The notes under the pieces were generated by a model that worked only from the letters and a program-made list of their open reading frames with translations, did not search any database and had not been told where the DNA came from. DNA of 64,000 nt from Caldithrix abyssi DSM 13497 (GTDB lineage Bacteria; Electryoneota; AABM5-125-24; Hatepunaeales; Hatepunaeaceae): the NCBI GenBank assembly GCA_945865405.1, contig CAMBDS010000012.1:2383-66382 (forward strand), given 5' to 3'. This document shows, piece by piece, positions 20,001-42,379 of the stretch (the first letter of the stretch is position 1; every line of letters starts with the position of its first letter). Position numbers and translations under genes: made by a program.

Positions 20001-22908
20001 TCATGTTGGAAGTGATTCTTGAGATCGTAAGATCGACACCACCAGTGTTGGAAATATGGAAAACGTGCGAGGCGCTATTGCGAGCGCGGATAGGTCCAAA
20101 TTGGAAGATCATCGGATCAACGGCGATCTGTGCTTCGACCACATCGCTATGCGCCTCTAACCTCGAAAGTACAGTTCTTGCCTGAGCTTGGAAGACTTCT
20201 GGGCCTTCTGAATATGTAGGAACACCTTCAAGCTCTTGACGGGTAGAACCATCCCAAACTAACCATGTAAAGGCTTCGCCATCAACGAAACCATCCCTAA
20301 CGGGAGTGCCACGATCGTCACCCCATGCCGCTATTCCGACTGCTCCAGCCTCATCAATGACAGTGTGACCGGCACAAAGTCCAGACTCGGTGAACAAGGC
20401 GATCTCGTCTCCAGCAGCTAAAGGAGCCTCACGATCTCCAGGCATTGTCAGGATTGCTTCATCTATAAGAAGCGAATGGTTTCCGTCAGTAATTCGGTGA
20501 TGGAAATGACTTGCTTCGTTAACGCCATCACCTTCAACCATAAAGCGGACCTCGCCGTTGTTCGGGTCGTCAGAGGTAATAATCAGGTTAGCCTGATGAG
20601 TTCCAACTTGTGCCGGATGGTAAGTAACCATCACATCGAAAAACTCGTTTGCATTGATGTTTCTCGGATTGCCTGGCCAATTCGTTGTAAAGGCGTTGGA
20701 ACCTTCCACGACGACGTTACTAAGGCGCATTAAACCACCGCCAACGTTATTGATACGCAGAGAATATGTGGCATCAACATTGAGCGGAATCGCGCCAAAA
20801 AAGTGGTTCGGTGCGCCAAGCATGATTTCAGGTTCGCGAGCAACATCGACACCGAGACCGAATAGATCAACGTAAAGGACAGAGTCCATTGGGTCATCGG
20901 ACATAATTGTCACTCGACCCTCATACTCAACGTTTTCCTCGCTGGGGGTGAAAGTAACGGTAATGTCGCGCGACTCGCCAAGCTCCAATTCGAATTCGCC
21001 ATCGAAATCGGTTGTGAATTCGTTTAAGTCGGGCTCAATACCCATGACATGGAGCGTACCACGTCCTTGATTAGAAACACTCATGACCCAATCCTCTGAC
21101 TCGCCGACTGCAACCTGACCGTAAAAGTGGTCCATCGCATTCAGAGAGATATCGGGAAGTGGATCGCCAAGGTTTGCAGAAAGTGAAAGAACTGTAACGC
21201 CTCCGTCCTCGTATGTTTCGGGCCCCATTTCAAATTCAGGATTTGCCCAAGCTTGTTCGCCGGAATTGTTATCCCAAATCATGAAGGAAAAGGCTTCGCC
21301 TTCTATAAATCCATCGACAATTTCAGTCGATTCGTCGTCGCCATAAGCGGCAATACCAGCCTGACCGTCTCGCCCTAATGCACCCGCACCAGCAAGTATA
21401 CCGGATTCAGTGAACATTGCTATTTCGGATCCTTCGTGGATGACGTTTCCTTCAAGTGACGTAGCGGTTATCAAGACCGAGTGACTTCCGCCAGTATTGT
21501 GTGCGTGGAAATTCCGGCCATTTGCTGCTACACCCGAGCCTGCAATGGGAATCATTATTTCAGGATTCTCTTCGTCATCAGTAGTTACTGTCAAAATTCC
21601 ATCGTAGAAGAATACTTCTTCGGGATTAAATGAAGTATTCACGTAGAGGTAGTCGCCGGGACGTAATCTGATGGGATCGTTGCCGAACTCAACCATGAAG
21701 GCTTCATTGTCACTGGTAACGTCGTTTACCATCAAATCGCTTCCACCAGTGTTGGTGACGACCATTCGCCACATACCGGCCTGACCAACAACAATAGCAC
21801 TGTAGAAATGCTCTGAAGCCATCACTTCGGCCGCCGCGGCACCTTCGGCCCTACCCTCTCCAGAAAGGGGAATTATGACAATATCTTCATCGGGGTCGTT
21901 GGAAGCTATGGTTAACTCAGCTTCGTAAGCTATTTGTTCGCTAGGTGTAAAAGAAACCACCACCTCGTGGCGATCTCCGGCGGCGACCTCAAATTGACCC
22001 TCGAAATCCGTTGTGAAAACATCATTATCGGTTGAGACATTGGACACAACAAGTGGTTGGTCGCCTTCATTGAAGACGAAAACTGACATGTTGCGCGTTT
22101 GGCCGACTATGACTCTGCCAAAGCGTCGTTCATTAATTAGCAACGCAATATCAGGCGGTAGAGCATCTTCTCCAACACCAACCAGATGGATGGTAACTTC
22201 ACTCATATCACGACCATCCGAAGTGATAGTGAGGTCAGCAGAAGCATCACCTGCAGCGTCGGGGGTAAATGTTACCGTAACAACCTGCGAATCGCCGTTC
22301 GCGATCTCCATGGCACCATCAAAATCGGTCGTGAATGCTTCGTTATCAGTTAAAACGCTTTCAACCGAGAGTGGCGAATTGCCGACACTTAGGATGGAAA
22401 ATTCCCAAGTGGCTGATCTGCCTATTCTGACAGCCTCAAAATCGTGCTCATTGTTGGCAACTCGGATTCTCGGAATGTCTTCACGATGAGCGGATAGGTT
22501 GCAAGCGATGAAAACGTCGCGTTGATAAATGCCTTCGCCAAAAGTCACTTCGACATCAGCATCCCATTCTTCATCAGCCTGATGATCCCAGACTTTGAAG
22601 AAAAGCTGTTCACCTTCGCGAAAACCGTTGATACCCTGCTCGTCTTGATCATCACCCCAAGCTGCCGGTCCGACAGGAAATCCTTCATCGGTAATGATTG
22701 CGGCTCCAGCCAAGATCCCAGCGGGAGTAAAAATACCTATCTCGTCATCAACAACGAGAGATTCTCCATCGAGCAGTGCCTCGTCAACAAGGACACTCAT
22801 ATTTCCTTGATTGATCGGTGGGTCCCAATGCTGTGCAAAGACTGCGGGTGCCGACGCCAGAAACAGAGCCAGCAGCAACAACGGAATTGAGTATCTAGAA
22901 CGATCCAT
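17089..22908 (-). CDS. Giant secreted surface protein G1 (1939 aa), T9SS cargo; function unknown
   Basis: GGGAGG lies just upstream of the ATG. Signal peptide MDRSRYSIPLLLLALFLASAPAVFA/Q. Four copies of the unassigned 115-aa module are interleaved with 6 Ig-like 'choice-of-anchor D'/ASH-type domains (pattern FG.V.VG....W...I.N.G...L.V......N..F..DF.....I..G....V.VTF.P......A.L.I.S.DP). These are followed by 5 cadherin-like repeats closing in NVNQAP/INDIP/INDAP/VNDAP/INDLP, a pre-CTD domain, and the tail SYPNPFNARTTLKFGLPTPGDVEVSVWDMHGR... Confidence 0.9.
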   Translation of the reverse strand: MDRSRYSIPLLLLALFLASAPAVFAQHWDPPINQGNMSVLVDEALLDGESLVVDDEIGIFTPAGILAGAAIITDEGFPVGPAAWGDDQDEQGINGFREGEQLFFKVWDHQADEEWDADVEVTFGEGIYQRDVFIACNLSAHREDIPRIRVANNEHDFEAVRIGRSATWEFSILSVGNSPLSVESVLTDNEAFTTDFDGAMEIANGDSQVVTVTFTPDAAGDASADLTITSDGRDMSEVTIHLVGVGEDALPPDIALLINERRFGRVIVGQTRNMSVFVFNEGDQPLVVSNVSTDNDVFTTDFEGQFEVAAGDRHEVVVSFTPSEQIAYEAELTIASNDPDEDIVIIPLSGEGRAEGAAAAEVMASEHFYSAIVVGQAGMWRMVVTNTGGSDLMVNDVTSDNEAFMVEFGNDPIRLRPGDYLYVNTSFNPEEVFFYDGILTVTTDDEENPEIMIPIAGSGVAANGRNFHAHNTGGSHSVLITATSLEGNVIHEGSEIAMFTESGILAGAGALGRDGQAGIAAYGDDESTEIVDGFIEGEAFSFMIWDNNSGEQAWANPEFEMGPETYEDGGVTVLSLSANLGDPLPDISLNAMDHFYGQVAVGESEDWVMSVSNQGRGTLHVMGIEPDLNEFTTDFDGEFELELGESRDITVTFTPSEENVEYEGRVTIMSDDPMDSVLYVDLFGLGVDVAREPEIMLGAPNHFFGAIPLNVDATYSLRINNVGGGLMRLSNVVVEGSNAFTTNWPGNPRNINANEFFDVMVTYHPAQVGTHQANLIITSDDPNNGEVRFMVEGDGVNEASHFHHRITDGNHSLLIDEAILTMPGDREAPLAAGDEIALFTESGLCAGHTVIDEAGAVGIAAWGDDRGTPVRDGFVDGEAFTWLVWDGSTRQELEGVPTYSEGPEVFQAQARTVLSRLEAHSDVVEAQIAVDPMIFQFGPIRARNSASHVFHISNTGGVDLTISRITSNMNVYTHDFNNQAVVLGPDEVLDVNVTFTPTEDAPYEGILTVFSDDPDQAQFTFRPNGVGSVEQGRFDFMSVAQNHSLLVEPFEFGGVDAAVGDEIGVFTTAGLCAGAGIVEQPGTCGVAAWGDDPETRFVVEGFQNGEAMTLKVWDSSQRREYEGDDIVVEVEDNQELNWQNDAINFLSIRVEGVVVLASDPGEVQVSEGEDVDIHFTIANAPGNMRLSILNRDEIAQNAGDVEFTDNGNNTADFHWETNFNSFRNRPYVLSFQATNGDITDVTSVMITIVNVNQAPEVQPFQDDLITFDEDQAMAGAPPRLVVIPDMRNLFTDPDGNALTFITQAMNPNMTNEHRVVAGVPRWQIDLPANFFGDVRVTLRANDNQQGAPERDMRRVDGAAGAFEANISNPSETPVRDLITDYTFTMRFRSINDIPVITAPQNNGQFVWNIDERQDAALQFNGTDVESQGDQIVWTMPNRGGLPDEARFVDNRNGTATLSWQPTADDIGQYQTVVRMADADGGADEINNLTINVRGINDAPVYNDQNPLEDVVIQEDADRVVIATLNDNHWVDPDQGDQLNFGVVAPAPADLQVQYNAQTTEVSIQPRLNINGEFDITVYCRDRAQAPNEVREVIHVTVEPVNDAPTFVPPNIANIRIAEDSNLNELQIARLNLKFRDIDVGDVLAYAVDGPAEFGLRIDAGTTALFRTLSANYNTAALDGDSAIVTVTATDRAGESVSTQFGVTVTPDINDLPSDRAGGGGAFRLLTPEMNHNFEGPDSLGPFVFSWEPAIQNQWEIDSVRYWFRAWIPGRQDTLKFDTLSGTQYPVPNDSLFVKLGQRLRDRDITIHWKVIAVDRGMLVVAQQQRNVPAANNNFAFTASRLEIRELPHAEMPENYFISNSYPNPFNARTTLKFGLPTPGDVEVSVWDMHGRKIAQLAGGRHEAGQYELTWTAEGQTSGIYLIKMQSGAFIGMQKAILVR
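17092..17355 (-). other. T9SS type A C-terminal sorting domain (Por_Secre_tail, TIGR04183-like) of G1
   Basis: PENYFISNSYPNPFNARTTLKFGLPTPGDVEVSVWDMHGRKIAQLAGGRHEAGQYELTWTAEGQTSGIYLIKMQSGAFIGMQKAILVR. Confidence 0.85.
17773..19455 (-). repeat. Array of 5 cadherin-like / He_PIG-type Ig repeats in G1
   Basis: Units of about 100-140 aa, each ending in a [VI]N[DQ].P linker. Acidic DPDG/D.D motifs are present (TDPDGNALTF, VDPDQGDQLNF, RDIDVGDVLAY). Confidence 0.7.
19456..19812 (-). repeat. Unassigned module, copy G1-M4
   Basis: RFDFMSVAQNHSLLVEPFEFGGVDAAVGDEIGVFTTAGLCAGAGIVEQPGTCGVAAWGDDPETRFVVEGFQNGEAMTLKVWD... Confidence 0.8.
20155..20508 (-). repeat. Unassigned module, copy G1-M3
   Basis: HFHHRITDGNHSLLIDEAIL...AAGDEIALFTESGLCAGHTVIDEAGAVGIAAWGDDRGTPVRDGFVDGEAFTWLVWD... 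Confidence 0.8.
21175..21510 (-). repeat. Unassigned module, copy G1-M2
   Basis: FHAHNTGGSHSVLITATSLEGNVIHEGSEIAMFTESGILAGAGALGRDGQAGIAAYGDDESTEIVDGFIEGEAFSFMIWD... Confidence 0.8.
22492..22830 (-). repeat. Unassigned HF/NHS/AAWGDD module, copy G1-M1 (protein-level repeat)
   Basis: HWDPPINQGNMSVLVDEALLDGESLVVDDEIGIFTPAGILAGAAIITDEGFPVGPAAWGDDQDEQGINGFREGEQLFFKVWD... It starts one residue after the predicted signal-peptide cleavage site. The C-terminal boundary is approximate. Confidence 0.8.
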
Positions 22909-23282: not shown

Positions 23283-24350
23283 CTATTTTGTGAGTGTAAG
23301 TGAAATAGTCTTTGAACCAAAAGTGGTTTCCAATCGACAATAATAATTACCAGATGGTATCCAATTAAGATTGACTGGAAGTTGATGAATGCCCGCACTT
23401 AAACCAGAATAATCAGTATAATAAATTTCCTTCCCATCCAATCCTAATACGAAAAGTCTTAAAGAGGTTTCAGTTGGCAGAGCCAATTTTATGACAGTTT
23501 GACCATTAAACGGATTAGGATAGGTTCCCAAGATTTCAAAACTTGTTGGTGCCAGGGGATCAAGTCTTACTGAAACAGGATCGTTCCAGAGCTGAATGGT
23601 CGATCTCCCGTCTATTGAAAAGTGCTCGTCGCCAAGTAATATCTGCCAATTTGTCGAATCGATTGTCAAAAATGAATCAGAAGAGAAGAAACTGAATTGA
23701 AATCCTTCACCGACCGCAAATCCTTCGACTATTCCTTCTGTTTCAGGATCATCTTCATAGGCCCATCCAGATGCTGAGTCGGAATCTATCCATATAAGAA
23801 ATCCTCCTACATCACCTTGAGCAGTACAAATCCCAACTTGATCGCCCGGGTGCGGACCAATTAACATTTCACCCGAGAAGAACTCTGCTGAAGGACAAGT
23901 GAATTTGTGACGATTTATTGTTGGATGTATATCAAAATACGGCTCTTTTGCCGCTAATTCAACTATTAGAAGGCCATTGCTGTGCCAAATTCCATCCCCG
24001 GTAAGTAGATAAATTCGCTCAAGTGATACCTCGTGCTGTTGTTCGGAGTCCCATCTGACAAAGTAAATCGAGTCACCTTCCCTAAATCCTTCGATACTAT
24101 CTCGAGTTAAGGCGTCGTCACCCCAGGCTGCAATCCCCAAAGGAAAGCCAGTTACTGCCACAGACCCACCGCATCGTCCTTCAGGTGTCAACACACCGAT
24201 TTCATCACCACCGCCCCAGATCCCACCCACATAGACTTCTCTTATCAATATGGAGCAGTTAACGTCTGTAGTATCAAAATCAAAGTGATTTGCGTAAGAG
24301 CAGATTGTTAATGAAAACATCAACATGAATGCTGCTAATATCTGTCGCAT
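23283..24350 (-). CDS. Small T9SS cargo protein S (355 aa): two copies of the unassigned module plus the sorting domain
   Basis: Signal peptide MRQILAAFMLMFSLTICSYA/N. One canonical and one degenerate module copy, then the tail GTYPNPFNGQTVIKLALPTETSLRLFVLGLDGKEIY... Only 36 nt separate it from the stop of the upstream giant gene. Confidence 0.85.
   Translation of the reverse strand: MRQILAAFMLMFSLTICSYANHFDFDTTDVNCSILIREVYVGGIWGGGDEIGVLTPEGRCGGSVAVTGFPLGIAAWGDDALTRDSIEGFREGDSIYFVRWDSEQQHEVSLERIYLLTGDGIWHSNGLLIVELAAKEPYFDIHPTINRHKFTCPSAEFFSGEMLIGPHPGDQVGICTAQGDVGGFLIWIDSDSASGWAYEDDPETEGIVEGFAVGEGFQFSFFSSDSFLTIDSTNWQILLGDEHFSIDGRSTIQLWNDPVSVRLDPLAPTSFEILGTYPNPFNGQTVIKLALPTETSLRLFVLGLDGKEIYYTDYSGLSAGIHQLPVNLNWIPSGNYYCRLETTFGSKTISLTLTK
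23286..23549 (-). other. T9SS type A C-terminal sorting domain of S
   Basis: PTSFEILGTYPNPFNGQTVIKLALPTETSLRLFVLGLDGKEIYYTDYSGLSAGIHQLPVNLNWIPSGNYYCRLETTFGSKTISLTLTK. Confidence 0.8.
23586..23939 (-). repeat. Unassigned module, degenerate copy S-M2
   Basis: ...GEMLIGPHPGDQVGICTAQGDVGGFLIWIDSDSASGWAYEDDPETEGIVEGFAVGEGFQFSFF... This copy keeps GD.[IV]G, G.A.EDD and GF..GE but lacks the HF/NHS start. Confidence 0.55.
23952..24287 (-). repeat. Unassigned module, copy S-M1
   Basis: HFDFDTTDVNCSILIREVYVGGIWGGGDEIGVLTPEGRCGGSVAVTGFPLGIAAWGDDALTRDSIEGFREGDSIYFVRWD... Confidence 0.8.
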
Positions 24351-24386: not shown

Positions 24387-27300
24387 TTAACGTAGAAGGA
24401 CTAACTTTTCTGTTGCCATCGATTGGCCGACAATAATTTCCAACCAGTAAATACCGGTGGGCAAAGTTACTGCGTCGATAGTATATGTATGCCAACCGGC
24501 TTCAAGCTGAGTCTCGCTCATCGACCAAACTACTCTTCCCTGCAGATCAATAAGGCGAGTCGATGCCTTGCCGAGTATTGGCAAACCAAATCGAATTGTT
24601 GTTCTACTGTTGAATGGATTCGGATATGTCGGGGTTAGGGTAAGAACTGAGGGGATCTCGACCTGAGTTGCTTTGAGGGAAATAGCTTCAAAACCATCGG
24701 TGCTAAACTTGAGGACTCTCTCGTCTGATTCGAATTGGGCGATAACATTATTCACCTTAACCGCAAGAATAGCAAGTAGTTCATCATCAACAGCTCCATC
24801 GATTTCAAAGGTTAATGTATCATCACCTCTAACAATAAGTCCGGCGGGAAGCGAAGACAGTGAGCCACGCCCAACTGTTTGACCACTCCTTTTGGAAACA
24901 GCGACAAGCGATACATCATTTCCAAGAAAGCTTGCGGGAGCATCAGTCACAAGCAAACTCATGTCGGATCCGGTACTTCTCGCTGACTGTAAATTTGGCA
25001 CTATTGAGAGTGGAGCTATTTGTTGGCGGTTCTCCTCATCCTGATACACAAGTTCTGTCCGGCGGTCAACCTTGATCTTATAGCCTTCCCCCGGAATAAG
25101 TGATTCAATTCCGAAGTAGCCGAATCGAGGTGCGATAAAATCACCCACGCCATTTTTAGCCAGGAGAAGCGATTGCATTATCCCCTCGAGCCCAATGCGA
25201 GGGTCAATTGGGTGATCGAGAAGGTAGCCTACTGTGTTCCAGCCCAATGAAAGTGGGATTGGGGTATCGAACTCTATCTTTCTTCCGGTCACAACCAGGC
25301 TATCATCCTCGTTGACATTGACCTGATAACCGTGCAATGGATTCCATGGACCCAAACCGTTATAATCGAAGCGCGTTGTCCAAAATCTTCCCAATCCGTC
25401 CTTTACTATAACAAGGTGCTCCCTATCCCGGATTTCGCTAAACATGATTGGTACTTCAAGTTCAAAAGGTACGACATAGCTCGATATCAAATTCCAGCCT
25501 CTCGCGAGTCTGATCACATGTCGATCTGGATCACGAACAACCAATCGTACCTCAACCTCATCATTATCACGAAAATGGAAATCGCCTGTTACATATTCAA
25601 CTTCCGGGTGGTATTCTTCATTACTGCCAGAATCCCAGATAACGAGTGCCATTGAATCGCCTTGGGAAAATCCGTTGTCACCACCATAGGCTATGAATTC
25701 AGCAGGCGCTTCAACCCATCTGACGACTCCTCCAACTTGACCTCCAGGTGTGATCGCCGCAATTTCACTCCCTACCATGAGATCGCTTCCGTAGAAATCA
25801 ATAGAGAGAACGTGAATGTTTGAACGATTTTCTGTGACTTCAGGGTTGTCAAAATGGCGAAAACCGGAAACAATCTCAAGAGATACGTGCAATGATGCAA
25901 CAGTGCCATCGAAGGACCTGACCATGATATCAGCTTCATAAACATCGTTTTCCTCAGCGCCGGGCGGAACTTCGAAATCTATGGTTAACTCCTGAGTACT
26001 CTCTGACGCTAACTCTCCTTCGATTGGGTTTATCGTGATCCAACTAACTCTCGGGTTTAGTTCAACGCCGAGTAGGTGTTGCGAATCCCTTCCGACAACA
26101 ACTCCCATTATCCAGCGATTGGCGTCCCAACTTCCAGTTACGAAGAGTCCAGTAGGAGGTCCTACAAATTGAAGTTCGGTCTCCTCGATGACGCCACGCT
26201 CTGGATTTGACCGATAAATCTTTGTACCGCCGTCTGGCTCAAGATTGGCCACATATAGCGGAAGATCATCCGGATCGCCCGGATTCCATCCAAAACCATA
26301 TACTCCTGTAAGTCCGTGGCCATCCCATTCCTGGAGCACATCTCCGTCTCGATCTACCAGATACCAAGGCAAATCGTATTCCCCGCACCAAAACGCATCA
26401 GGCTCGGAGCTATAAGCAAGCGCGCGATTGACAGTTAGTGGTGCTCCCGGTTGGACGCGATGGAGTTGCCCATCCACGGTGATCGCATAGATACTGTCAT
26501 TTTGTGAACCGTATAGGTATGTTCCATCCCAAGCAAGATCTCGAAGCCCCCAGCCAACTCGATTTGCTTGTGGTTGCGCAAATTGTCGAACCAGTACTCC
26601 ATCACGATTGAGTACTGCAATCGAGAGTCCTCGTATCGGGTCGCCGCTCGTCACGAAGATCTGGTCAGCAGCATACTCGGCTCCCATTATCCGTTGCAAT
26701 CCGGTTATGGCTGTTAAATCGTGATCGAAATTAATGTCTCCCTGCTGATCACGCAGTGGATCTGTCTCGGTTGTGCCTCTCAGTGACCTGGTTCCACTGT
26801 CCCGGTTGGGCACCTGATTCATAAGACGAAGCACGTACGGAATCGAGATTTCGCTCTCGTTTCGGAGAGTAGTGTTGACAGTCAGACGGTCATTGCCACC
26901 AAGTGCAACCTCAAGCCCCTGATCACTGAAAGTGACCAAAGGACGATAAAGCTCAAAATCGACTCGAATGTTGTCACGAGCACGAAGCACCGTTTCGATC
27001 ACATCGGCTTGGTAACCCGCAAGAGTTGCGGAAAGATTTGTAAATCCTGGAACAAGGCCAATTAGGTTGTAATTTCCTTGCTGGTTAGTCTGGGTTGAAA
27101 CCCGCCCATTTGAAACCTTCACACCGGCTAAAACTTGGCCGTTTTGATCTCGAGCCACTCCAAAAATTTGAGCGGCGACAGGCGGCGCACCTCCCCAGAC
27201 AACAAAGTCATCAAGAAACCAACCAGAGTACCAATCTATGGCATTATCTGTTTTGAACAACCAACGAAACCTAAGCGCCTGACCCTGATAGTCTGAAAGA

Positions 27301-30300
27301 TCAAAACTGACTATTTGCCATGCAGGAATTTCCCCGGTAAAGGCGGGTCGGTTTTGGAAAGCCGCTACTGTTTGATCTGGATAACCACCAATTGGTGTTA
27401 GCAGTTGATACGCCCCACCATCAACTGAAACCAGAAACTGCCCGCCATCACGCCCGGCTTCGGCCGAAAGATAATGGAAAAATTCAACGCGCGCATTTTG
27501 TGAGGTGATCAGATATTCGCTGATTGTGGTCAAAGTCCAGTTTGCATTGTTCTCGTAATGTCGCGGGGAAGGCTGATTTGTACCCCAGACAAATGTGCCT
27601 GAATGAGCAGATCCGGGCCCGTTAACCAAACTACTTGTTCGTGCCCATTTACCAAACGGTGCAGCCGTAAAGACTGCAGGAGGCGCACCTCCATCGAAAC
27701 TGAAATATTGGCTAAGGCCAAGCGGAACACGAGCAGTAACAGGAACAGAATAGTTGGGAACTTCGTCGTAGGCAATCAAGGAAAGATCGTACCAACCTTC
27801 ATCCCCTTCCGGCATCTCTGCAGTGAATGTTAAGGTAGGTGCATTTACCCTACCGACTTCCTGACCATTAATAATGACTCGGCATCCAGCATAATCGGTA
27901 CAATTCTGGACATTATCAGCGTTCCTGGCAGGCGCGTTCCACCTGATGGTATAATTAGGCCCATTATTGGTAACTATAATGTTAGTTGGAACTCCCGGAG
28001 CCATGTTATACTTTCCGACGATTTCATCGCTTTCCATTTCGATGTTTTCGTCATAAACCGCAACAACTTGAAATGTATGTTCTTCATCTTCTCCGTTTGT
28101 ATCTTCGATAAAGTTATAGCGATAATTGGGAAAATCGCCTTCTGCGACAATCTGACCATCTACAAGGATTTTGTAGCCGTTTGGCGGATCCCTTCCAGGA
28201 TCTTCGTTCTCAACAAATTCAACCGGAGGCGACGCATCGCTTGCAAGTAATTGCGAATCGATAGAAGGTCCTCTTGCAATCTCAATTCGATCGCTCAGAG
28301 CTTCGTTATTGAATCCGATATCTCCAACTTCTCGAAGGGGTCGTGGGGCAAGACGTTCCTCTGCATCTTCGCGATAGCTATAGACGACGGCTCGAATCAT
28401 GTTATCACCAGGTAGACCGTTAAATCGGTGCCATTGGCCATCAATCCGAAGGTGTGTTACATCAGGGTGATCGAGGTGCCCATCGAGACCGGTAGCCTGA
28501 AATGTAGCTACCTGGCGTACCATGTCCTGATGCCATCCTACGTAAAATGCGCCTCTGCGGAAGCGAATGTCTGCCGGGCGAACGGTGACCCATTGAGTGG
28601 CAACTCGGAATTGGTCGTAGTCGCTCCAAATTTCTTCTCCAGGAAGTCCTGTCTCGGGATCCTCTTCCCACATCTTGAACTGAATCGGTACGGCTGCCCA
28701 ACCTTGCCAGCCATTGAACCCGAAATCACCACGCCGAAACATGTAAATCTGTACGGCAGTGATATCATACAAGTCTTCAGGTTCGAATCTTACAGCGATT
28801 ACATCGTCCCGTCCGCGAAGAAAAACGGCATTGTTAATTGGGCCATTATCATATCGAAGAGAATCTGTTCGTCCAATTGTCCCTGGCGGATCCCAGATAA
28901 CAGCGACACGGTCATCAAAATTGCCATTTACCCTAATGCTTCCCATTGGCAATCGATCATCCATGGTAAAATTAAGCTCGGTAATTCCACCATCTTGAAT
29001 TTCGATATTATTTACCCTGTCAGCGTGCCATGCAGATAATCTTGGCGTTACACCGTAAGTGCCTTCTGGGAGCGTTATCTCGTAATATCCCTCAGCGTCC
29101 GTAGTTCCAACACCGTAAACTGAATTGTCATCTTCATTGATTGCAGCAACATCGACTCCTTCCAGCCACCCATTCTCGTTATGAGCGCTATTGATATGCC
29201 CACTTAATATTCCGCGATGGATATGGGCAAGTTCAAAGTTCCGTCTAAGATTTTCATTTGGGCTGATACTGAATGAATCGCTGATAAATGCATCGTAACC
29301 ATCCAACGTAGCTGTAAGCTGAAATAGACCAGGAATTAAGTCAAAGAAACCGTAATTTCCTTCATTATCTGGATTTGCCTCTACACCGTTCAAAGTGAGT
29401 GCAACATTTTCGAGTGCCCCTTCACCATCAAGGGATACTACGCCTTCGAGAGAACAGGAGCCACCACTAATCAGCAGAGTGACGGGCACATTTGTTACTC
29501 GACCGCCCATAAAGTCATACAACTCGATATTGGCGGAAAGTTCGCTGTCGACCCTGCCACGGGCGTCAAATGAGACCTGTAACTGTGTTTCAGCACCTCC
29601 AGCTAATTGAACTACTAACGGCGAAGTTTTTACCCAGTTTTGTTTGGGCCAAAGTTCATAAAGTTTAAGTACATCCGCATCCGGGCCCTGAATGACTACA
29701 CCGAGCATCCAGGTCTGAGTATCGTAGAGATAGGTAGTGAATGCGCCTCCAGCGAAGCCCTCCTCCTCCGTTGCGGTTTCAATTTCACGGATTAGCTCTC
29801 GAGTTCGAGGATTAAACCGATAAATTGCAGCTCCACCATTGTCGGATTCCTGATTGTGAATATAGAGACAGGCGCCATCAGGATCAGATGGATTCCATGC
29901 CATACCGACGACACCTGTCAGCCCGTGATCAGTTACTCGATCCGCAAGGACAGATTCCCCGACTCTGATCCGGCGATACTTATACCATGTGTCGTCACGG
30001 TCACCAATCCAAAACGAATTTTCTTCATGAATCCAAGCAACTGCTCGTGCGACCCCTAATGGAGTCAGGATCTCCCGACCTAAAACTCCACCGGCAGCAG
30101 GATTAATGCGAACCAATTCTCCCGCAGTAGTGCTTGAACCATAAAGAAAAGTTCCATCATAGGCAAGATCACGAGTTCCCCACCCGTCCATATTGTTATT
30201 GTTTAGATTTCCCAATTGGAGCCTATTGACGACGTCTCCCGCCCTATTCATTACATAAAGGTGACTTGTGTCACTGCCAAAATCACCAGCCGTAGTCACA

Positions 30301-33110
30301 AGATTGTATGACCTTGGTGTACCTCCGCGGATAAATTCAGCGGCAATGTGGTACTGATCTCCTGTTTTCTCGGTGAGGTTATAGGTTTCAAGTAGTTCCC
30401 ACGGTTCATCTCGTTCAGGTACTGGAGCAAATCCAATTTCAGGGTTGTCTATTAAATCTCCGCCACCTTGCACGAAGTAATCGATGTAGGCTTGAAAACT
30501 TGTAGGGCGATTGCCGGCGTTCCTAACGGTAAGCGCTACGTTTAACTGTTCGCCAGCCTCAAGCTCGCGCTCAAGGAATTCTGGCTCAACTGTTATCCTG
30601 CTGTCATACTCATCCATAAAGAAAGCACGTTGGTTATTCGGATTTGGCTCGATCCCGAAATTACCACGTAATTCCTCAAATCCAAGAGCAGTAACTACAT
30701 AAGCGTAATTACCTGAAGGAATATCGACAAAACGTACTACCCCATTGATGTCGGAGTTGGCTCGATATACTCCATTTAACACGACCAATGCAGCTGAAAT
30801 CGGTAACTGATCAGCGCTTGTTCTGACAGACGCCGTCAATGATCCGGTTTCCGGAGCGAAGAGACGAAGATCATCGATAAGCCAGCCCGGTCCAACATTG
30901 CTATCATCAGATTTGAAGCGAAACTTAAGCGTTACTGTCTGCCCTGCAAGTGCAGTTAAATCAAAAGACGAAGCGACCCATCCGCCCGAATTACCCGAAA
31001 AACCTGCTCCACCATCAAATACAAATATTGATCGCTCAGGATAACCAGTAGTTGGAACCAAAGTCTCCCAGCGATCACCATTGTCAGGGCTGAATTCGAC
31101 TCGGCCTCCATCCCATCCACCTTCACAGTTGAATTTGTGATTGAAAGTGAGAAATGTATGGGCACCTTCAGGAACGACAACACGTGGAGTCAGAAGCTCA
31201 AAATCTGCAAGATTTGGGTAATTTCCATTGAGTGAGGTCGCCCAAGCTCTCTGGCCATTAGCAGCACCTCCGGCAGGAGCCCCCCATGTCCATCCATTTT
31301 GACCGGGGTTAGCAGTTAAGGCGCCGTTGTTTTGTTCAAAGCCAAGGGTAACTGGTACGCGCCAAAGCCCGGTCGGGGTAACAAAAACCGGATCGGACAA
31401 TTCGGACTCACCATCAGGATCTCGATAGATGGCAGAAATAGCGAATTCGTATTGGGTTCCATTTGCCAATTCAATTGCCGTGTAACGGTGGCTGTTTGTA
31501 AAATCAAATTCTTCATTATTAACATATACCTTAAAGCCAAGTAGGTCGTCTCTTGCGGGCATTTCCTGATATTCGAGTCGAATTAGCTCCTGACGCAATC
31601 TGTAAATTTCATTTAGGATCTCCTCAGTCGGCTTTTGCTGGTTATGCGAGGTAAATGCCGCAATCTGATGCTGTAGCTCCAATCGCCGCCCAAGTAGTTG
31701 TTCATTCCTGTTAGGCATATCCCAAGCGAGAACCACCTCACCATCACCGGCAACTGCACGGAGATTGATAGGACGCCCAAATTCAGGAGTTGGTTCTCTA
31801 AAGTAATTGACGATTCGCCTGATCAGTTCCTGTTTAGTTGCACCTTCGCCATCGACGAGTCCTCCAAACTCTATAGATGAACCAACTGTCCGATAAACCT
31901 CTCCGCTGAATGCTACCATACCGACTGCCGTTTCGTCAGCATCACGAAAAGTTAAGACCTCTTGAGCATCTTCCATAACTCCAAGATGATCCATATAGTC
32001 ATTATCTTGAGCGCTATACTCATCAAAGACCAAACCCTCGGTGAAACTGCCATCAACACCTGCAATAGGCCCACTCGCCGAGTGACCATCGATGATACCT
32101 TCAATTCTAAATAGCGGATGAGCATCGGTGACGGGATCACCAGTCCAGAAATCTGATCCCTCAAGATAGATATTTCCACCGGATCGAGCGTAACCAGCCA
32201 GAATTTCGCCTTCAGCGCCGGTCAAGCGATGATAATTCCTGCCGTTTTGACCGTAATTACCAAGATTTACAAATACAGCCTCAAATTCACTCAGGTCATC
32301 TGGCAATTGCTGGTTCAAACGACTTTGCAAAAATGTGACCGAGTGATCTTCTGCATTAAGAGCAACTACCTGAGCGGCCCCAGATGGAGTTGAAGCACCG
32401 CCATTCCACACGAGAAAGCTACCTGGCCCGTGATCACTTATCAGGTAAGCACTTCCAGATTCGATTGCACTACCTTCACCATCATACCGAATCGTCAGCC
32501 CTTCACTACCATCAAAATTCTCAAGACCAACAGTACCGATGCCGACGTTAAAGTCATCGCCGATAGTTTTGAATTGTAAAACTACATCGCCATCCGGCTT
32601 GAGCACTATCTGCATAGTGATAGTGTTTTGTGGCGAGTGCCCGTTTTCGTTAACCTCGGGATAATCCTGATATTGTACTACAAAATTTCCTTCGCGGTGC
32701 CCAAAATAGACCGATCCTTCCCCCCAATCGGTACGAGGAGCAAGATTTTTCCAGTAGATGGCAACAATGTTATCAGGGGAATTATGGTTGGGAAGTTCCT
32801 GGTTGGCAGATCGACCATATTCGTCGGTTGGGCCAAAGCCTATCATGCCGTTGGAGCTTACGTAGACATTGTCGTAGAGGCGGCCGAAGTAAGGGAAGTC
32901 AAAACCGATGGCGATTGGACCGACAAATGTGTTGTCTTCCAGTTCGACAATCTGTTCACCGATATCTTCAATTTCGAGCCAACGGTAATCAGTTTCGTAT
33001 GAAAGGTACGGATTACCCTCATCTCTGCCAGGCATCGGATTACCGTTTGCAGAGAGCGAGAGTAGATTGAGCAGCAACAGTCCGGCAAGGAGCTGTGTAA
33101 AGCGTCGCAT
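24387..33110 (-). CDS. Giant secreted surface protein G2 (about 2907 aa from the preferred start), T9SS cargo; function unknown
   Basis: Preferred start is the ATG at 33110 (MRRFTQLLAGLLLLNLLSLSANG signal peptide, GAGGA 5 nt upstream), not the track start at 33233. Layout in order:
- a nidogen-like N-terminal region (FDFPYFGRLYDNVYVSSNGMIGFG; low confidence)
- an alpha/beta-looking region
- an FN3 with a helical insert
- two copies of a large lectin-like + CarboxypepD_reg-like + Ig + unassigned 240-aa block
- extra CarboxypepD_reg-like domains and FN3s
- one divergent copy of the 115-aa module
- two GWN...GY repeats
- the tail TYPNPFNSRTTIRFGLP... Confidence 0.9.
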   Translation of the reverse strand: MRRFTQLLAGLLLLNLLSLSANGNPMPGRDEGNPYLSYETDYRWLEIEDIGEQIVELEDNTFVGPIAIGFDFPYFGRLYDNVYVSSNGMIGFGPTDEYGRSANQELPNHNSPDNIVAIYWKNLAPRTDWGEGSVYFGHREGNFVVQYQDYPEVNENGHSPQNTITMQIVLKPDGDVVLQFKTIGDDFNVGIGTVGLENFDGSEGLTIRYDGEGSAIESGSAYLISDHGPGSFLVWNGGASTPSGAAQVVALNAEDHSVTFLQSRLNQQLPDDLSEFEAVFVNLGNYGQNGRNYHRLTGAEGEILAGYARSGGNIYLEGSDFWTGDPVTDAHPLFRIEGIIDGHSASGPIAGVDGSFTEGLVFDEYSAQDNDYMDHLGVMEDAQEVLTFRDADETAVGMVAFSGEVYRTVGSSIEFGGLVDGEGATKQELIRRIVNYFREPTPEFGRPINLRAVAGDGEVVLAWDMPNRNEQLLGRRLELQHQIAAFTSHNQQKPTEEILNEIYRLRQELIRLEYQEMPARDDLLGFKVYVNNEEFDFTNSHRYTAIELANGTQYEFAISAIYRDPDGESELSDPVFVTPTGLWRVPVTLGFEQNNGALTANPGQNGWTWGAPAGGAANGQRAWATSLNGNYPNLADFELLTPRVVVPEGAHTFLTFNHKFNCEGGWDGGRVEFSPDNGDRWETLVPTTGYPERSIFVFDGGAGFSGNSGGWVASSFDLTALAGQTVTLKFRFKSDDSNVGPGWLIDDLRLFAPETGSLTASVRTSADQLPISAALVVLNGVYRANSDINGVVRFVDIPSGNYAYVVTALGFEELRGNFGIEPNPNNQRAFFMDEYDSRITVEPEFLERELEAGEQLNVALTVRNAGNRPTSFQAYIDYFVQGGGDLIDNPEIGFAPVPERDEPWELLETYNLTEKTGDQYHIAAEFIRGGTPRSYNLVTTAGDFGSDTSHLYVMNRAGDVVNRLQLGNLNNNNMDGWGTRDLAYDGTFLYGSSTTAGELVRINPAAGGVLGREILTPLGVARAVAWIHEENSFWIGDRDDTWYKYRRIRVGESVLADRVTDHGLTGVVGMAWNPSDPDGACLYIHNQESDNGGAAIYRFNPRTRELIREIETATEEEGFAGGAFTTYLYDTQTWMLGVVIQGPDADVLKLYELWPKQNWVKTSPLVVQLAGGAETQLQVSFDARGRVDSELSANIELYDFMGGRVTNVPVTLLISGGSCSLEGVVSLDGEGALENVALTLNGVEANPDNEGNYGFFDLIPGLFQLTATLDGYDAFISDSFSISPNENLRRNFELAHIHRGILSGHINSAHNENGWLEGVDVAAINEDDNSVYGVGTTDAEGYYEITLPEGTYGVTPRLSAWHADRVNNIEIQDGGITELNFTMDDRLPMGSIRVNGNFDDRVAVIWDPPGTIGRTDSLRYDNGPINNAVFLRGRDDVIAVRFEPEDLYDITAVQIYMFRRGDFGFNGWQGWAAVPIQFKMWEEDPETGLPGEEIWSDYDQFRVATQWVTVRPADIRFRRGAFYVGWHQDMVRQVATFQATGLDGHLDHPDVTHLRIDGQWHRFNGLPGDNMIRAVVYSYREDAEERLAPRPLREVGDIGFNNEALSDRIEIARGPSIDSQLLASDASPPVEFVENEDPGRDPPNGYKILVDGQIVAEGDFPNYRYNFIEDTNGEDEEHTFQVVAVYDENIEMESDEIVGKYNMAPGVPTNIIVTNNGPNYTIRWNAPARNADNVQNCTDYAGCRVIINGQEVGRVNAPTLTFTAEMPEGDEGWYDLSLIAYDEVPNYSVPVTARVPLGLSQYFSFDGGAPPAVFTAAPFGKWARTSSLVNGPGSAHSGTFVWGTNQPSPRHYENNANWTLTTISEYLITSQNARVEFFHYLSAEAGRDGGQFLVSVDGGAYQLLTPIGGYPDQTVAAFQNRPAFTGEIPAWQIVSFDLSDYQGQALRFRWLFKTDNAIDWYSGWFLDDFVVWGGAPPVAAQIFGVARDQNGQVLAGVKVSNGRVSTQTNQQGNYNLIGLVPGFTNLSATLAGYQADVIETVLRARDNIRVDFELYRPLVTFSDQGLEVALGGNDRLTVNTTLRNESEISIPYVLRLMNQVPNRDSGTRSLRGTTETDPLRDQQGDINFDHDLTAITGLQRIMGAEYAADQIFVTSGDPIRGLSIAVLNRDGVLVRQFAQPQANRVGWGLRDLAWDGTYLYGSQNDSIYAITVDGQLHRVQPGAPLTVNRALAYSSEPDAFWCGEYDLPWYLVDRDGDVLQEWDGHGLTGVYGFGWNPGDPDDLPLYVANLEPDGGTKIYRSNPERGVIEETELQFVGPPTGLFVTGSWDANRWIMGVVVGRDSQHLLGVELNPRVSWITINPIEGELASESTQELTIDFEVPPGAEENDVYEADIMVRSFDGTVASLHVSLEIVSGFRHFDNPEVTENRSNIHVLSIDFYGSDLMVGSEIAAITPGGQVGGVVRWVEAPAEFIAYGGDNGFSQGDSMALVIWDSGSNEEYHPEVEYVTGDFHFRDNDEVEVRLVVRDPDRHVIRLARGWNLISSYVVPFELEVPIMFSEIRDREHLVIVKDGLGRFWTTRFDYNGLGPWNPLHGYQVNVNEDDSLVVTGRKIEFDTPIPLSLGWNTVGYLLDHPIDPRIGLEGIMQSLLLAKNGVGDFIAPRFGYFGIESLIPGEGYKIKVDRRTELVYQDEENRQQIAPLSIVPNLQSARSTGSDMSLLVTDAPASFLGNDVSLVAVSKRSGQTVGRGSLSSLPAGLIVRGDDTLTFEIDGAVDDELLAILAVKVNNVIAQFESDERVLKFSTDGFEAISLKATQVEIPSVLTLTPTYPNPFNSRTTIRFGLPILGKASTRLIDLQGRVVWSMSETQLEAGWHTYTIDAVTLPTGIYWLEIIVGQSMATEKLVLLR
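24390..24656 (-). other. T9SS type A C-terminal sorting domain of G2
   Basis: IPSVLTLTPTYPNPFNSRTTIRFGLPILGKASTRLIDLQGRVVWSMSETQLEAGWHTYTIDAVTLPTGIYWLEIIVGQSMATEKLVLLR. Confidence 0.85.
24675..24989 (-). repeat. Possible 13th, highly degenerate module copy immediately before the G2 sorting domain
   Basis: DMSLLVTDAPASFLGNDVSLVAVSKRSGQTVGRGSLSSLPAGLIVRGDDTLTFEIDGAVDDELLAILAVKV keeps the order SLL[IV] / G.[DE][IV] / G..G / [IV]..GDD / [IV].G...[DE]. All signature residues are weakened. Confidence 0.3.
25536..25859 (-). repeat. Unassigned module, divergent copy G2-M1
   Basis: RHFDNPEVTENRSNIHVLSIDFYGSDLMVGSEIAAITPGGQVGGVVRWVEAPAEFIAYGGDNGFSQGDSMALVIWDSGSNEEYHPEVEY... Confidence 0.65.
25869..27710 (-). 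repeat. G2 internal duplication, block B (about 614 aa)
   Basis: Block B runs FDGGAPPAVFTAAPFGKWARTS...GWFLDDFVVWG, then AAQIFGVARDQNGQVLAGVKV...QQGNYNLIGLVPGFTNLSATLAGY, an Ig-like domain, and RVGWGLRDLAWDGTYLYGS...HGLTGVYGFGWNPGDPDD...IYRSNP...WIMGVVVGR. Confidence 0.75.
29469..31352 (-). repeat. G2 internal duplication, block A (about 628 aa)
   Basis: Block A runs LGFEQNNGALTANPGQNGWTWGAP...GWLIDDLRLF (jelly-roll/lectin-like), then GSLTASVRT...NGVVRFVDIPSGNYAYVVTALGF (CarboxypepD_reg-like), an Ig-like domain, and MDGWGTRDLAYDGTFLYGS...HGLTGVVGMAWNPSDPDG...IYRFNP...WMLGVVIQG. It is collinear with block B. Confidence 0.75.
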
Positions 33111-33193
33111 CAGAATCCTCGTTCGATCGAAATTGACACACCGGCAAATGATTACGATACTACCGGTGAAGAATGTAAATGTCCTAACTACTA

Positions 33194-33223
33194 AATATAA
33201 TGCAAAGTCGGTTGACTTTACAA
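33194..33223 (-). promoter_or_regulatory. Candidate sigma70-type promoter for G2 (and probably S)
   Basis: The minus strand reads TTGTAA-N18-TATATT, about 80 nt upstream of the ATG at 33110. It lies inside the 41-codon N-terminal extension of the track ORF, which argues for the shorter start. Confidence 0.35.
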
Positions 33224-33307
33224 GCATCCTCAAAAACTATCTCGTATTTTTCGGGGTCAATTCTCAAACTAGTAGCTTACACTACAGCATTGAAAGGGAA
33301 AAGAGCT

Positions 33308-33364: not shown

Positions 33365-36300
33365 CTACTTCAACATTGCACCTTTGACAATGTGACGCTC
33401 ACCATTTACTTGCAATACGAACAAGTAGATACCAGCTGAATTTCCTATGCCATCCCAGGAGAATTCATGCGTACCAGCTTCAAATCGCCCTTCAGTGATA
33501 GTTGCGATTGTCCGTGCGTGCATGTCATAGACATTCAGCTTCACATCTCCGGCATTGGGTAAGGAGAAACTAAGTTTGGTCTCGGGATTGAACGGATTTG
33601 GGTAATTTTGACTAAGAGATATTTCGGTCGGAAGTAATCTCTCTTCACCCGGTGCACTGAGTGGGGGGACGATAACGGTGCGTCTCTGGTTTGACTCACG
33701 CACCACCTGACCGTCTGAGACCTCTACCCACCATCTTATTTTGAGCGAATCTTCAAGACCAACCAAGGCGACTAAAGTATCCAGGCCAGAGATTGAGAAT
33801 GAAGTATCGGCTAACAGGCCTGAACGGAAGGTGCTGTCGATTGGTGCATCGATAAGTGCGAAGACAATCGAGTAGCGCAATTGATCGTTATCGTCATCAG
33901 AGGATCTGTTCCATCTAAAAGTACCTCGATAGTTTGCAAGGACTGCCATATCGACCGGCAAACGTAGATCGAAGCCATTCGGGTTGTCGTTAACTGGCCT
34001 CACAGTTACCCTGAACTGCTGGTTGACCTGCGCAGCCCCATCAGTCGCCGTTACTGTAATGACTACTCCGGCAGCCAGGTTGAAGTTGGCAATAGGGTTT
34101 ATGAACAATATATTACCATTCTCCAAACCCATCCCTAACTGCTGCGGAGCCCCGGCAAAGCCAAACTGCAATGCGTTATTATCTGGATCGGTAAAAAATT
34201 GCCTCAAGTCGGCAATATCAAACCTACCTTGATCTTCATCGACATCTACATCACCAATTTGGCCTTGTCGAACAGGAGGTCTGTTGACATTATTGACTGT
34301 AATCTCAACATTTATTACGTCAGTTAAACCGGATGCATCGCGTGCCTGGAAGACACCAACATAGGGATCTTGTCGTGCATCATTAAAGCCGGGAGTCCAG
34401 ATGAAGTTGGCGCGACCGTCACCAATGTCATTGAACTGCCAACCCTGAGGCATGCCACCGTCATCGATCAACTGCCAACCAATATTATCATCGTCTGGGT
34501 CAGCAGCAAGAAAGGCGACACGAAGCTCTGAGTTCTCGTCAACATTAACTCGAAATACTGCTTGATCACTCGGCTGTGAAATTACGGGAGCACGATTAAG
34601 GTTTGAGACAGTAATTTCGACCACGATTTCATCCCTGCCATTGTCTGCATCCGTTGACCTGAAGCGAGGAGTATAAGCCTCTCGACGTGCGTCGAATGGG
34701 ACATTCCAATCGAAGCGAGCCATATTGTTCTGGTTGTCGGTAAACTGCCACCCGTTCGGCAACCCACCAGCATCAACTAACTCCCAGACCGAATTGCCAC
34801 CATCAGGGTCGGTTGAGCGGAAATCGACTATCAGTCGTTGTCCTTCTTCTACTGCAACTCTATGTACATCAGCATTTGCCGGTTCAGTGATGACGGGATT
34901 TCGATTGACGTTTGCGACCGAAATTGCTAAACGCAATTGATCGTTGGCACCCGCAGCATCCGTAGCAACAACCAACGGAGTATAAGCTTGACGGCGAGCG
35001 TCGAACGGCGGCGTCCAAAGCAATGTCGCCGTACCATCCCTATGATCTGTGAATTGGAAGCCGTTTGGCATACCACCAGCATCTGGCATTGTCCAGACGA
35101 TTCCGTCCGCATCCGCATCATCGGCACCGAAGTCGATTCTTAGCTCAGCATTCTCATTTACGTTAATCTGGAAGTTATCTTCACGGGTAGGTTCTGAGAT
35201 TTCGGGAGCACGATTGAAATTATTAATGGTAATTGTTACTTCGAGATCGGCAACAGCTCCAGCTCTATCCTCCACCCGGAACACTGGTCGATAAACTCCT
35301 GCATCTTCGAAATCAGTAGCCCAAACAAAGGTACCCTCTGGACCTTCATGGTCGAAGGTTGCCCCTTGATTCGTTACGCGATCCGGTATCCGAAGGAAGA
35401 TCTCGAGTTCATCTCCTTCATGAGCAAGATCGAAATCGTCAGCGTGAAGGGCGAACTCGATTCGCTCACCTTCACGGACTGTAACTTCACGCACAGGATT
35501 GACCCAGAACGGTTGGTCATTCAATGGATTGACTGTCAAGACGAAAGTATCTTCAATCCGGAATTCATTGTCTTCTGCACTGACTACAATATTAAACGCG
35601 CCGTTGATCCGATCGGCGGGAAAGACAGAGAGGATGCCATTGTTGATTGCAGCACCAAGAGCGTCATCTGCGATGACTCCATAGACGACGTTATCACCAT
35701 CAGGGTCATTGAAGAACTGTGAAAGAGTGAAGAGGTCGGTTCTGTTTGCATCTTCATCGATATCAGTGTCCGGAAGCCCTTGAGCTCTTGGCGGTCGATT
35801 GACGTGGTCTATGCGGAATGAGACCCTTGCATCAGCCGATTCAGCGTTATCGTTAATACGGAAAGTAGCTGCATAATTACCTGCATCGTCAAATGACGGG
35901 CTCCATGTAAATGTAGCTGTTCCGTCGTGATGGTCTGTCAGGGTTGCTGCCTGTGGCAGGTTCGAATTGATCAAAGAAATAACAAGATTGTTATTGTCCG
36001 GATCAGAACCAGTTACAACGAAACGTACTTCACTGTTTTCACGCCCATTAACCTGTTCAGGGACGTCGTTCCAAACTGGCGGACGATTAACATTGGTGAC
36101 TGTCACCATAACGGCAGAGCGAGTCGTTAGCTCTCCGTCACTGACAACCAGTTCACCTCTATACTCACCAGCGTCTGTGAAACCTGTCATCCAGAAAAAG
36201 GATCCACGACCGCTGCCGTGATCCTCAAGAGTGGCTGACTCGGGGAAATTGCCTCGTTCGAAAGTAAGAGTTAGTCCATCTGAGTCGATATCAGATGCCT

Positions 36301-42199: not shown

Positions 42200-42379
42200 T
42201 GAAATTCCTCTGAGAAAATGAAAACGATAGTGAGTTTCAGTGATTGAAAAGTTGGAAAAGTTTTCCGGAGCGATAGCTGGTTCAGCTTCAAGTCTGTGTG
42301 GAAACGATTGGTTCTTCAGCAGCGTTCGGTGATATGATAATATATCTGTAACTGTTTTGCTATGATACTGCGCACACAA

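Follow-up and report, generated by a model that had tools for sequence, protein, structure and literature searches.

Among T9SS components, PorE (PG1058) from Porphyromonas gingivalis unites a five-bladed beta-propeller with a CarboxypepD_reg-like fold (PMC7463736). The same two folds appear to recur in a giant protein encoded by the stretch of DNA analyzed here (64,000 nucleotides from Caldithrix abyssi DSM 13497, hereafter the window), although the two systems can be likened by this fold combination alone. PorE is a machinery lipoprotein with TPR and OmpA_C domains, whereas the protein described below is a putative cargo in which CarboxypepD_reg comes before the propeller. A related pairing is seen in the teneurin ectodomain, where a carboxypeptidase-like (TTR) domain accompanies an NHL propeller, and teneurins were indeed the top Foldseek result for a 628-aa block of the giant protein (8fia and 7bam, E ~1e-7). 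However, the TM score is only 0.25, the teneurin propeller is a six-bladed NHL type, and these proteins are eukaryotic, such that the resemblance is one of parts and not of family.

When the 240-aa region at the center of this analysis is considered by itself, its size-matched structural relatives are the C-terminal domain of E. coli YjiK (3qqz), glutaminyl cyclases of bacterial and plant origin (3nol and 2iwa), and the platform portion of the receptor-binding protein from phage phi11 (5efv), all of which we take to be five-bladed. These structures share with the region a length of ~240-250 aa, an all-beta composition, and a Foldseek probability of 1.0. They are unlike it in sequence (10-15% identity and no significant sequence match) and in setting, with the region here embedded in putative T9SS cargo. 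Propellers of the WD40 type, among them Nostoc 2ymu and the designed WRAP-T proteins, show blade-level sequence similarity over three consecutive blades, but they are built from at least seven 41-aa blades bearing the WD/GH signature, whereas the region seems to have five irregular blades of 43-55 aa and is matched by no Pfam WD40 model. Finally, DUF6923, a repeat family of unknown function, is the sole Pfam model that touches the region repeatedly among its relatives, yet only about two blades align, and the second copy of the region and most paralogs fail to match.

Organization and duplication of the giant protein

The gene and the parts of its two duplicated blocks, here called copies A and B, are as follows.

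24387..33233, minus strand: putative giant T9SS cargo gene; ORF of 2948 aa, with a likely ATG start at 33110 that would give 2907 aa with a signal peptide
30849..31313, minus strand: copy A part 1, MAM-like / choice-of-anchor J jelly-roll; aa 641-795, NF038128 match over aa 642-789 at 31.6 bits, modeled as all-beta within the block
30609..30848, minus strand: copy A part 2, CarboxypepD_reg-like beta-sandwich; aa 796-875, by Pfam and by a local HMM at aa 802-868, strands 169-246 of the block model
30471..30608, minus strand: copy A part 3, probable N-terminal half of a split Ig-like domain; aa 876-921, four strands with pLDDT >90
29634..30416, minus strand: copy A part 4, predicted five-bladed beta-propeller; aa 940-1200, from AlphaFold2, Foldseek, a PDB-sequence profile, and internal repeats
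29469..29642, minus strand: copy A, probable C-terminal half of the split Ig-like domain; aa 1198-1255, split-Ig HMM 43-103 of 109, E 0.005, five strands
27174..27710, minus strand: copy B part 1, MAM-like jelly-roll; aa 1842-2020, second InhA-like_MAM stretch, aligns with copy A
26934..27173, minus strand: copy B part 2, CarboxypepD_reg-like; aa 2021-2100, CarbopepD_reg_2 48.7 bits at aa 2028-2096, local HMM at aa 2024-2096
26799..26933, minus strand: copy B part 3, probable N-terminal half of a split Ig-like domain; aa 2101-2145, collinear with copy A, hhalign template 1-93 of 99
26049..26756, minus strand: copy B part 4, predicted five-bladed beta-propeller; aa 2160-2395, 37% identity to copy A, family profile 332 bits
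25866..26057, minus strand: copy B, probable C-terminal half of the split Ig-like domain; aa 2393-2456, split-Ig HMM 41-103, E 7e-4
24399..24626, minus strand: predicted T9SS type A C-terminal sorting domain; aa 2870-2945, Por_Secre_tail PF18962 36.3 bits (cut-off 27), TIGR04183 31.7 bits

Alignments of orthologs begin at residue 42 of the 2948-aa ORF (MRRFTQLLAGLLLL..., which reads as a signal peptide), and the mature gene product is therefore likely to be the 2907-aa protein named in the original prediction. An N-terminal signal peptide combined with a Por_Secre_tail C-terminus marks this giant protein as a probable T9SS type A cargo. Por_Secre_tail is also matched by three neighboring genes located downstream and upstream (17089-22908, 23283-24350, and 33365-42379), among which only the 1939-aa protein passes the cut-off. 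Pfam and NCBIfam models detected no catalytic domain anywhere in the giant protein, and Pfam gave no usable match on its central 197-aa region, its N-terminal 519 aa, or its C-terminal 431 aa.

The original prediction described two collinear blocks that arose by internal duplication, and this description is borne out. When block A (29469-31352, aa 628-1255) was compared with block B (25869-27710, aa 1842-2455), BLASTP returned one alignment with 170 of 583 positions identical (29%), 188 bits, and an E-value of 3e-56. The 240-aa cores (aa 940-1200 at 29634-30416 and aa 2160-2395 at 26049-26756) are 37% identical (E 1.8e-34), and no further copy of this core is present elsewhere in the window. 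The core alignment contains every element of the proposed shared signature, namely GWG.RDLA.DG,.RA.A, FW.G, HGLTGV.G..WNP.DPD, LY, IYR.NP, and GVV, and the spacer between the blocks, estimated earlier at about 580 aa, measures 586 aa. The jelly-roll/lectin-like character assigned to part 1 agrees with InhA-like_MAM PF20773 (62.2 bits in two stretches, one per block) and with the NF038128 match, whose cut-off is 30 bits. The proposed G[WP]GW ending does not hold for block B, where the jelly-roll ends YSGWFLDDFVVW instead. Likewise, part 2 is recognized by Pfam CarboxypepD_reg (106.7 bits, four stretches in the whole protein), as had been proposed.

A search of 5.8 billion proteins identified 24 homologs of the giant protein, most of which are ~2900 aa long and collinear with it from end to end at 37-65% identity; those that are named come from Calditrichota MAGs. 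Both copies of the predicted propeller occupy conserved positions in 22 of these 24 proteins, including all full-length orthologs found, while the remaining two are ~1900 aa long and match the giant protein in part, with one retaining a truncated first copy. Twenty A copies and 20 B copies were combined with 20 further propellers encoded in the window's genome to infer a maximum-likelihood tree. The A clade (support 100/99) and the B clade (97/89) are sister groups, and A and B together are set apart from all 20 paralogs at 100/99. This topology indicates a single internal duplication that is older than the divergence of the sampled orthologs. The duplication is thus real and ancient, and represents one event within the gene. 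A recent duplication or gene conversion can be rejected, given that identity between the copies is no higher than 29-37% and that the ortholog tree is recapitulated by each copy. Chance or compositional similarity of the blocks is ruled out by the E-values and by collinearity over four domain types.

Predicted fold and family of the 240-aa region

Clues to the fold of the region come from several directions. A search of PDB sequences with copy A as a single sequence yielded nothing significant. When a family profile was prepared from a 40-sequence alignment that included both copies from orthologs, the same type of search reached 2ymu, a WD40-type propeller from Nostoc, as well as designed propellers, with three consecutive blades aligned at per-stretch E-values down to 7e-6. 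Alignment of this profile with itself by hhalign revealed internal repeats at shifts of ~45 and ~90 residues (E 1e-5 to 4e-4). An AlphaFold2 model of the copy A core, made with the 40-sequence alignment, has a pLDDT of 94.1 and a pTM of 0.92 and is all-beta with 21 strands. Judging from strand order, these strands would form five blades of four strands each, and one additional strand at the N-terminus would close the last blade.

A Foldseek comparison of the model with the PDB gave 993 matches at E ≤ 0.001, and the best 50 of the 993 all contain propellers. The best size-matched entries were 3qqz (TM 0.61/0.65), 3nol (0.60/0.66), 2iwa (0.60/0.61), and the phage phi11 receptor-binding protein (0.59). 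The original prediction had ventured that the region may be a small beta-propeller and had named AlphaFold and Foldseek among the means to check this; both were run and favor it, and the profile search of PDB sequences agrees. The 240-aa region is accordingly predicted to be a small five-bladed beta-propeller.

Propellers are a familiar fold class, but the sequence family of this one is undescribed and is newly delineated here. The earlier statement that the region cannot be placed in a family still stands, as the Pfam models for NHL, YVTN, SBBP, Kelch, and WD40 all remain below threshold and DUF6923 is at its cut-off for copy A only. No member tested received a Pfam or NCBIfam assignment for its propeller. 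In Pfam scans the PD40 repeat model did not reach its cut-off on the region, and glutaminyl cyclase produced no Pfam match and only a profile hit among PDB sequences to 2faw with an E-value of 0.28 over 36 residues. Stray matches below threshold were scattered among 22 family domains, with Kelch_1 in two of them, Reg_prop in one, SdiA-regulated in one (E 0.022), and SGL seen as well.

The possibility that the region is a plain member of DUF6923 (PF21959), and hence already catalogued rather than a separate family, deserves more careful consideration. Depending on the piece scanned, copy A scores 26.5-27.2 bits against a cut-off of 27, with the highest value obtained on the whole protein, and 9 of the 22 family domains give weak matches at or below the cut-off, of which copy A is the best at 27.0 bits. 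However, the match on copy A spans just 77 of the 234 model positions (88-164), and Pfam finds no match on copy B. Furthermore, PF21959 is absent from the precomputed domain lists of the listed orthologs, and a six-frame search of the whole genome with this model returned nothing over the cut-off (best score 20.7 bits). Membership in DUF6923 is thus judged to be very unlikely. Literature on type IX secretion in Calditrichaeota and Caldithrix and on DUF6923 yielded no description of the propeller family.

The surroundings of the predicted propeller required some reinterpretation. The original prediction had flanked the region with two Ig-like domains, a short one on its N-terminal side and a second one on its C-terminal side. 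These flanks do look Ig-like, but most likely they are the two halves of one BACON/HYDIN-type sandwich into which the propeller is inserted. In the model of the 628-aa block (pLDDT 84.8), four strands precede the propeller and are followed by a ~20-aa linker with pLDDT <50, and five strands follow the propeller. When the 75 residues before and the 70 residues after the propeller were joined, seven of eight paralogs matched single Ig models (BACON_2 and HYDIN_VesB_CFA65-like_Ig) continuously across the junction, and two of these joined flanks exceeded the gathering cut-off (27.0 bits versus 25.5, and 25.6 bits versus 25). An HMM built from 16 joined flanks also detected, at E 5e-16 to 5e-6, uninterrupted copies of ~100 aa that belong to further proteins encoded in the genome. 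On family members, this same 109-position model matches in two pieces (1-45 and 40-106), one on each side of the propeller.

Evidence of the same kind is available for the giant protein. Its C-terminal Ig halves match the split-Ig HMM (E 5e-3 for copy A and 7e-4 for copy B), and its N-terminal halves go undetected by that model. When joined flanks from orthologs were compared by hhalign with the contiguous Ig profile of a neighboring gene, the alignment was collinear across the junction at an E-value of 8e-4, with a probability of only 24-25%. Overall, insertion of the propeller into one Ig-like domain is well supported in the paralogs by these sequence comparisons, and the same nested arrangement is suggested for the giant protein.

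A probable building block of T9SS cargo

The propeller family extends well beyond the giant protein. A HMMER scan of 1.84 billion representatives with a profile of the two copies identified 944 clusters (50% identity) at E ≤ 1e-3, including 369 at E ≤ 1e-10. The matches are nearly always to one complete unit, with a median length of 240 aa, and are located within proteins of varied length. Every one of the 61 genomes sampled across the phylum contains the domain; within the taxonomic family of the window, each genome has between 22 and 45 or more copies, and elsewhere the number is 1 to 37. One full-length member, P0043, belongs to candidate division LCP-89.

The genome that carries the window (2.76 Mb, 90% complete) encodes 30 copies in 29 ORFs. 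The order of parts in these 29 proteins is a head, CarboxypepD_reg, a gap of ~48 aa in most cases, the propeller, and then, in those proteins where the sorting domain comes next, ~76 aa leading up to it. Among the heads are Peptidase_C25 (together with its propeptide), PA14, and right-handed beta-helix (Beta_helix) domains, and two 'GWN' repeats come after the propeller in 8 of the 29 proteins. Approximately 17% of the DNA in this genome codes for proteins with T9SS sorting domains, and 4% codes for proteins carrying this propeller. From its sequence contexts, the family appears to be a standard building block of the T9SS cargo of this phylum that normally sits between a functional head and the sorting domain.

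Possible roles of the propeller

Patterns of conservation provide hints regarding function. Across orthologs, the predicted propellers are the best conserved segments of the giant protein, with identities to the window protein of 0.53 and 0.52, compared to 0.43 for the protein as a whole and 0.27-0.40 for its CarboxypepD_reg and Ig pieces. Residues that are invariant in both copies across all orthologs include W79, G80, R82, D83, R124, H164, Y199, and D232. According to the strand order of the AlphaFold2 model, R82/D83, R124, and H164 immediately precede the opening strands of blades 2, 3, and 4, respectively. In standard propeller topology, the loops before the first strand of each blade form the central-channel face, which is the usual side for ligand binding. 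If the region follows this topology, its invariant loop residues would be gathered on one face. A different picture emerges across 20 paralogs, in which the only conserved features are glycines, Q68, a DPDG turn, and the last Trp (W261). That paralogs keep only structural residues argues against a shared catalytic site, and argues for diversified binding surfaces or a structural role.

The reading favored here, to which a probability of about 0.6 is assigned, is that the giant is a conserved surface protein of Calditrichota that is exported by the T9SS, has an arm that was duplicated once, and uses its propellers as non-catalytic binding platforms in the manner of a bivalent adhesin or scaffold. 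The ancestral arm would have comprised a MAM / choice-of-anchor J jelly-roll, a CarboxypepD_reg sandwich, and an Ig-like sandwich with the propeller in one of its loops. Within the gene, this arm underwent a single duplication that predates the divergence of the sampled orthologs. We infer that each propeller might serve as a rigid, non-catalytic platform for binding, with specificity carried by the face of loops that precede the innermost strand of each blade, where W79/R82/D83, R124, and H164 would be located. With two such arms, the protein could function at the cell surface as a bivalent adhesin or scaffold.

The main rival to this reading is that the propeller has no specific ligand, and is a structural pedestal or spacer, or a unit for lateral contacts in a surface layer, that holds the heads off the outer membrane. 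A role of this kind would fit two findings: most of the 29 proteins, despite their unrelated heads, have the domain at a constant place immediately ahead of the sorting domain, and what paralogs share is limited to structural residues. However, the propellers of the giant protein are better conserved than any spacer-type domain in the same protein, and the same polar loop residues are kept in both copies, which is unusual for a mere spacer. For these reasons a purely structural role is considered unlikely, albeit a contender to be taken seriously. More distant still is the idea of an enzymatic propeller with surface or substrate molecules as its targets, for example a hydrolase or transferase resembling glutaminyl cyclases or lactonases. 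The invariant residues R82, D83, R124, H164, and D232 could equally mark an active site, five-bladed glutaminyl cyclases (3nol and 2iwa, TM 0.60-0.66) are among the size-matched structural neighbors, and weak Lactonase and SGL matches were observed. Yet the similarity to glutaminyl cyclase sequences is non-significant, no catalytic family model matches, and the set of polar residues is lost in the 20 paralogs, which together make an enzymatic role highly improbable. The binding platform is therefore favored over both the pedestal or lattice unit and, in third place, the enzyme.

A broader proposal can also be entertained. The unit formed by the Ig-like domain and the propeller directly precedes the sorting domain in many family members. 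Given this position, the unit could be needed for cargo recognition, anchoring, or surface-layer assembly, and the Ig-like domain with its inserted propeller might then be a general, lineage-specific device for T9SS cargo in Calditrichota and allied candidate phyla. This proposal is regarded as rather doubtful at present. If true, the device would do more than bind substrates, and its existence would broaden what is known of the role played by the pre-CTD Ig-like domain in cargo proteins of Bacteroidota.

Regardless of which role applies, there are practical benefits to naming the domain. Calditrichota are common in marine sediments and are almost entirely uncultured. Current annotation leaves the propeller domain blank, and a name would provide an annotation handle for roughly a thousand protein clusters. 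Naming it as a five-bladed propeller that is probably nested in an Ig domain also delimits a well-bounded construct on which structure and binding can be studied, and points to a predicted conserved face of loops. The duplication as such represents ordinary domain-level growth of a giant surface protein. Copy B of the giant protein occupies the standard position of the family, and copy A is the extra, internal one.

Additional domains of the giant protein

Beyond its two copies of the predicted five-bladed beta-propeller, the giant protein (24387-33233, minus strand; residues counted in the 2948-aa ORF) carries three further features:

32480-33020, minus strand (about aa 70-250): N-terminal domain of about 170 aa with homologues in the same genome
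28356-28946, minus strand (aa 1430-1626): central region of 197 aa
24990-25499, minus strand (aa 2579-2748): two tandem GWN units of about 85 aa each, with the pattern GWN...KDG.G.F..P...F......G.GY

Pfam searches returned no match to the giant protein's own N-terminal domain, the central region, or the tandem GWN units. A homologue of the N-terminal domain (E values of 1e-11 to 1e-4) lies directly upstream of CarboxypepD_reg in 14 or more further large proteins encoded by the genome, and the Pfam NIDO model (PF06119) is present in some homologues of a related subfamily. For the central region, conservation among orthologues is moderate (0.40), and no paralogue was found across the whole genome. 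The same pair of GWN units also occurs C-terminal of the propeller in eight of the 29 family proteins encoded by the same genome.

Type IX secretion cargo in the window and genome

Four consecutive minus-strand genes (17089-42379) all match the type IX secretion (T9SS) sorting-domain model, with two of the four passing its cut-off. HYDIN/ASH-type Ig domains and cadherin-like domains make up two of their products (3004 and 1939 aa), neither of which contains the propeller. When ORFs of at least 150 aa in the window's own genome were searched with a local HMM, 166 were found to carry a C-terminal T9SS sorting domain. Their summed length of 159,490 aa corresponds to approximately 17% of the 2.76-Mb assembly, of which the 29 propeller proteins alone take up 4.2%.

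Candidate propeller genes in a relative

A 6-Mb genome from the same family (G028) yielded 337 first-look propeller candidates, 45 of which were scored. Because genes of about 1180 and 2000 aa adjoin in runs on shared contigs (e.g. C42 and C28), their arrangement suggests tandem gene arrays.
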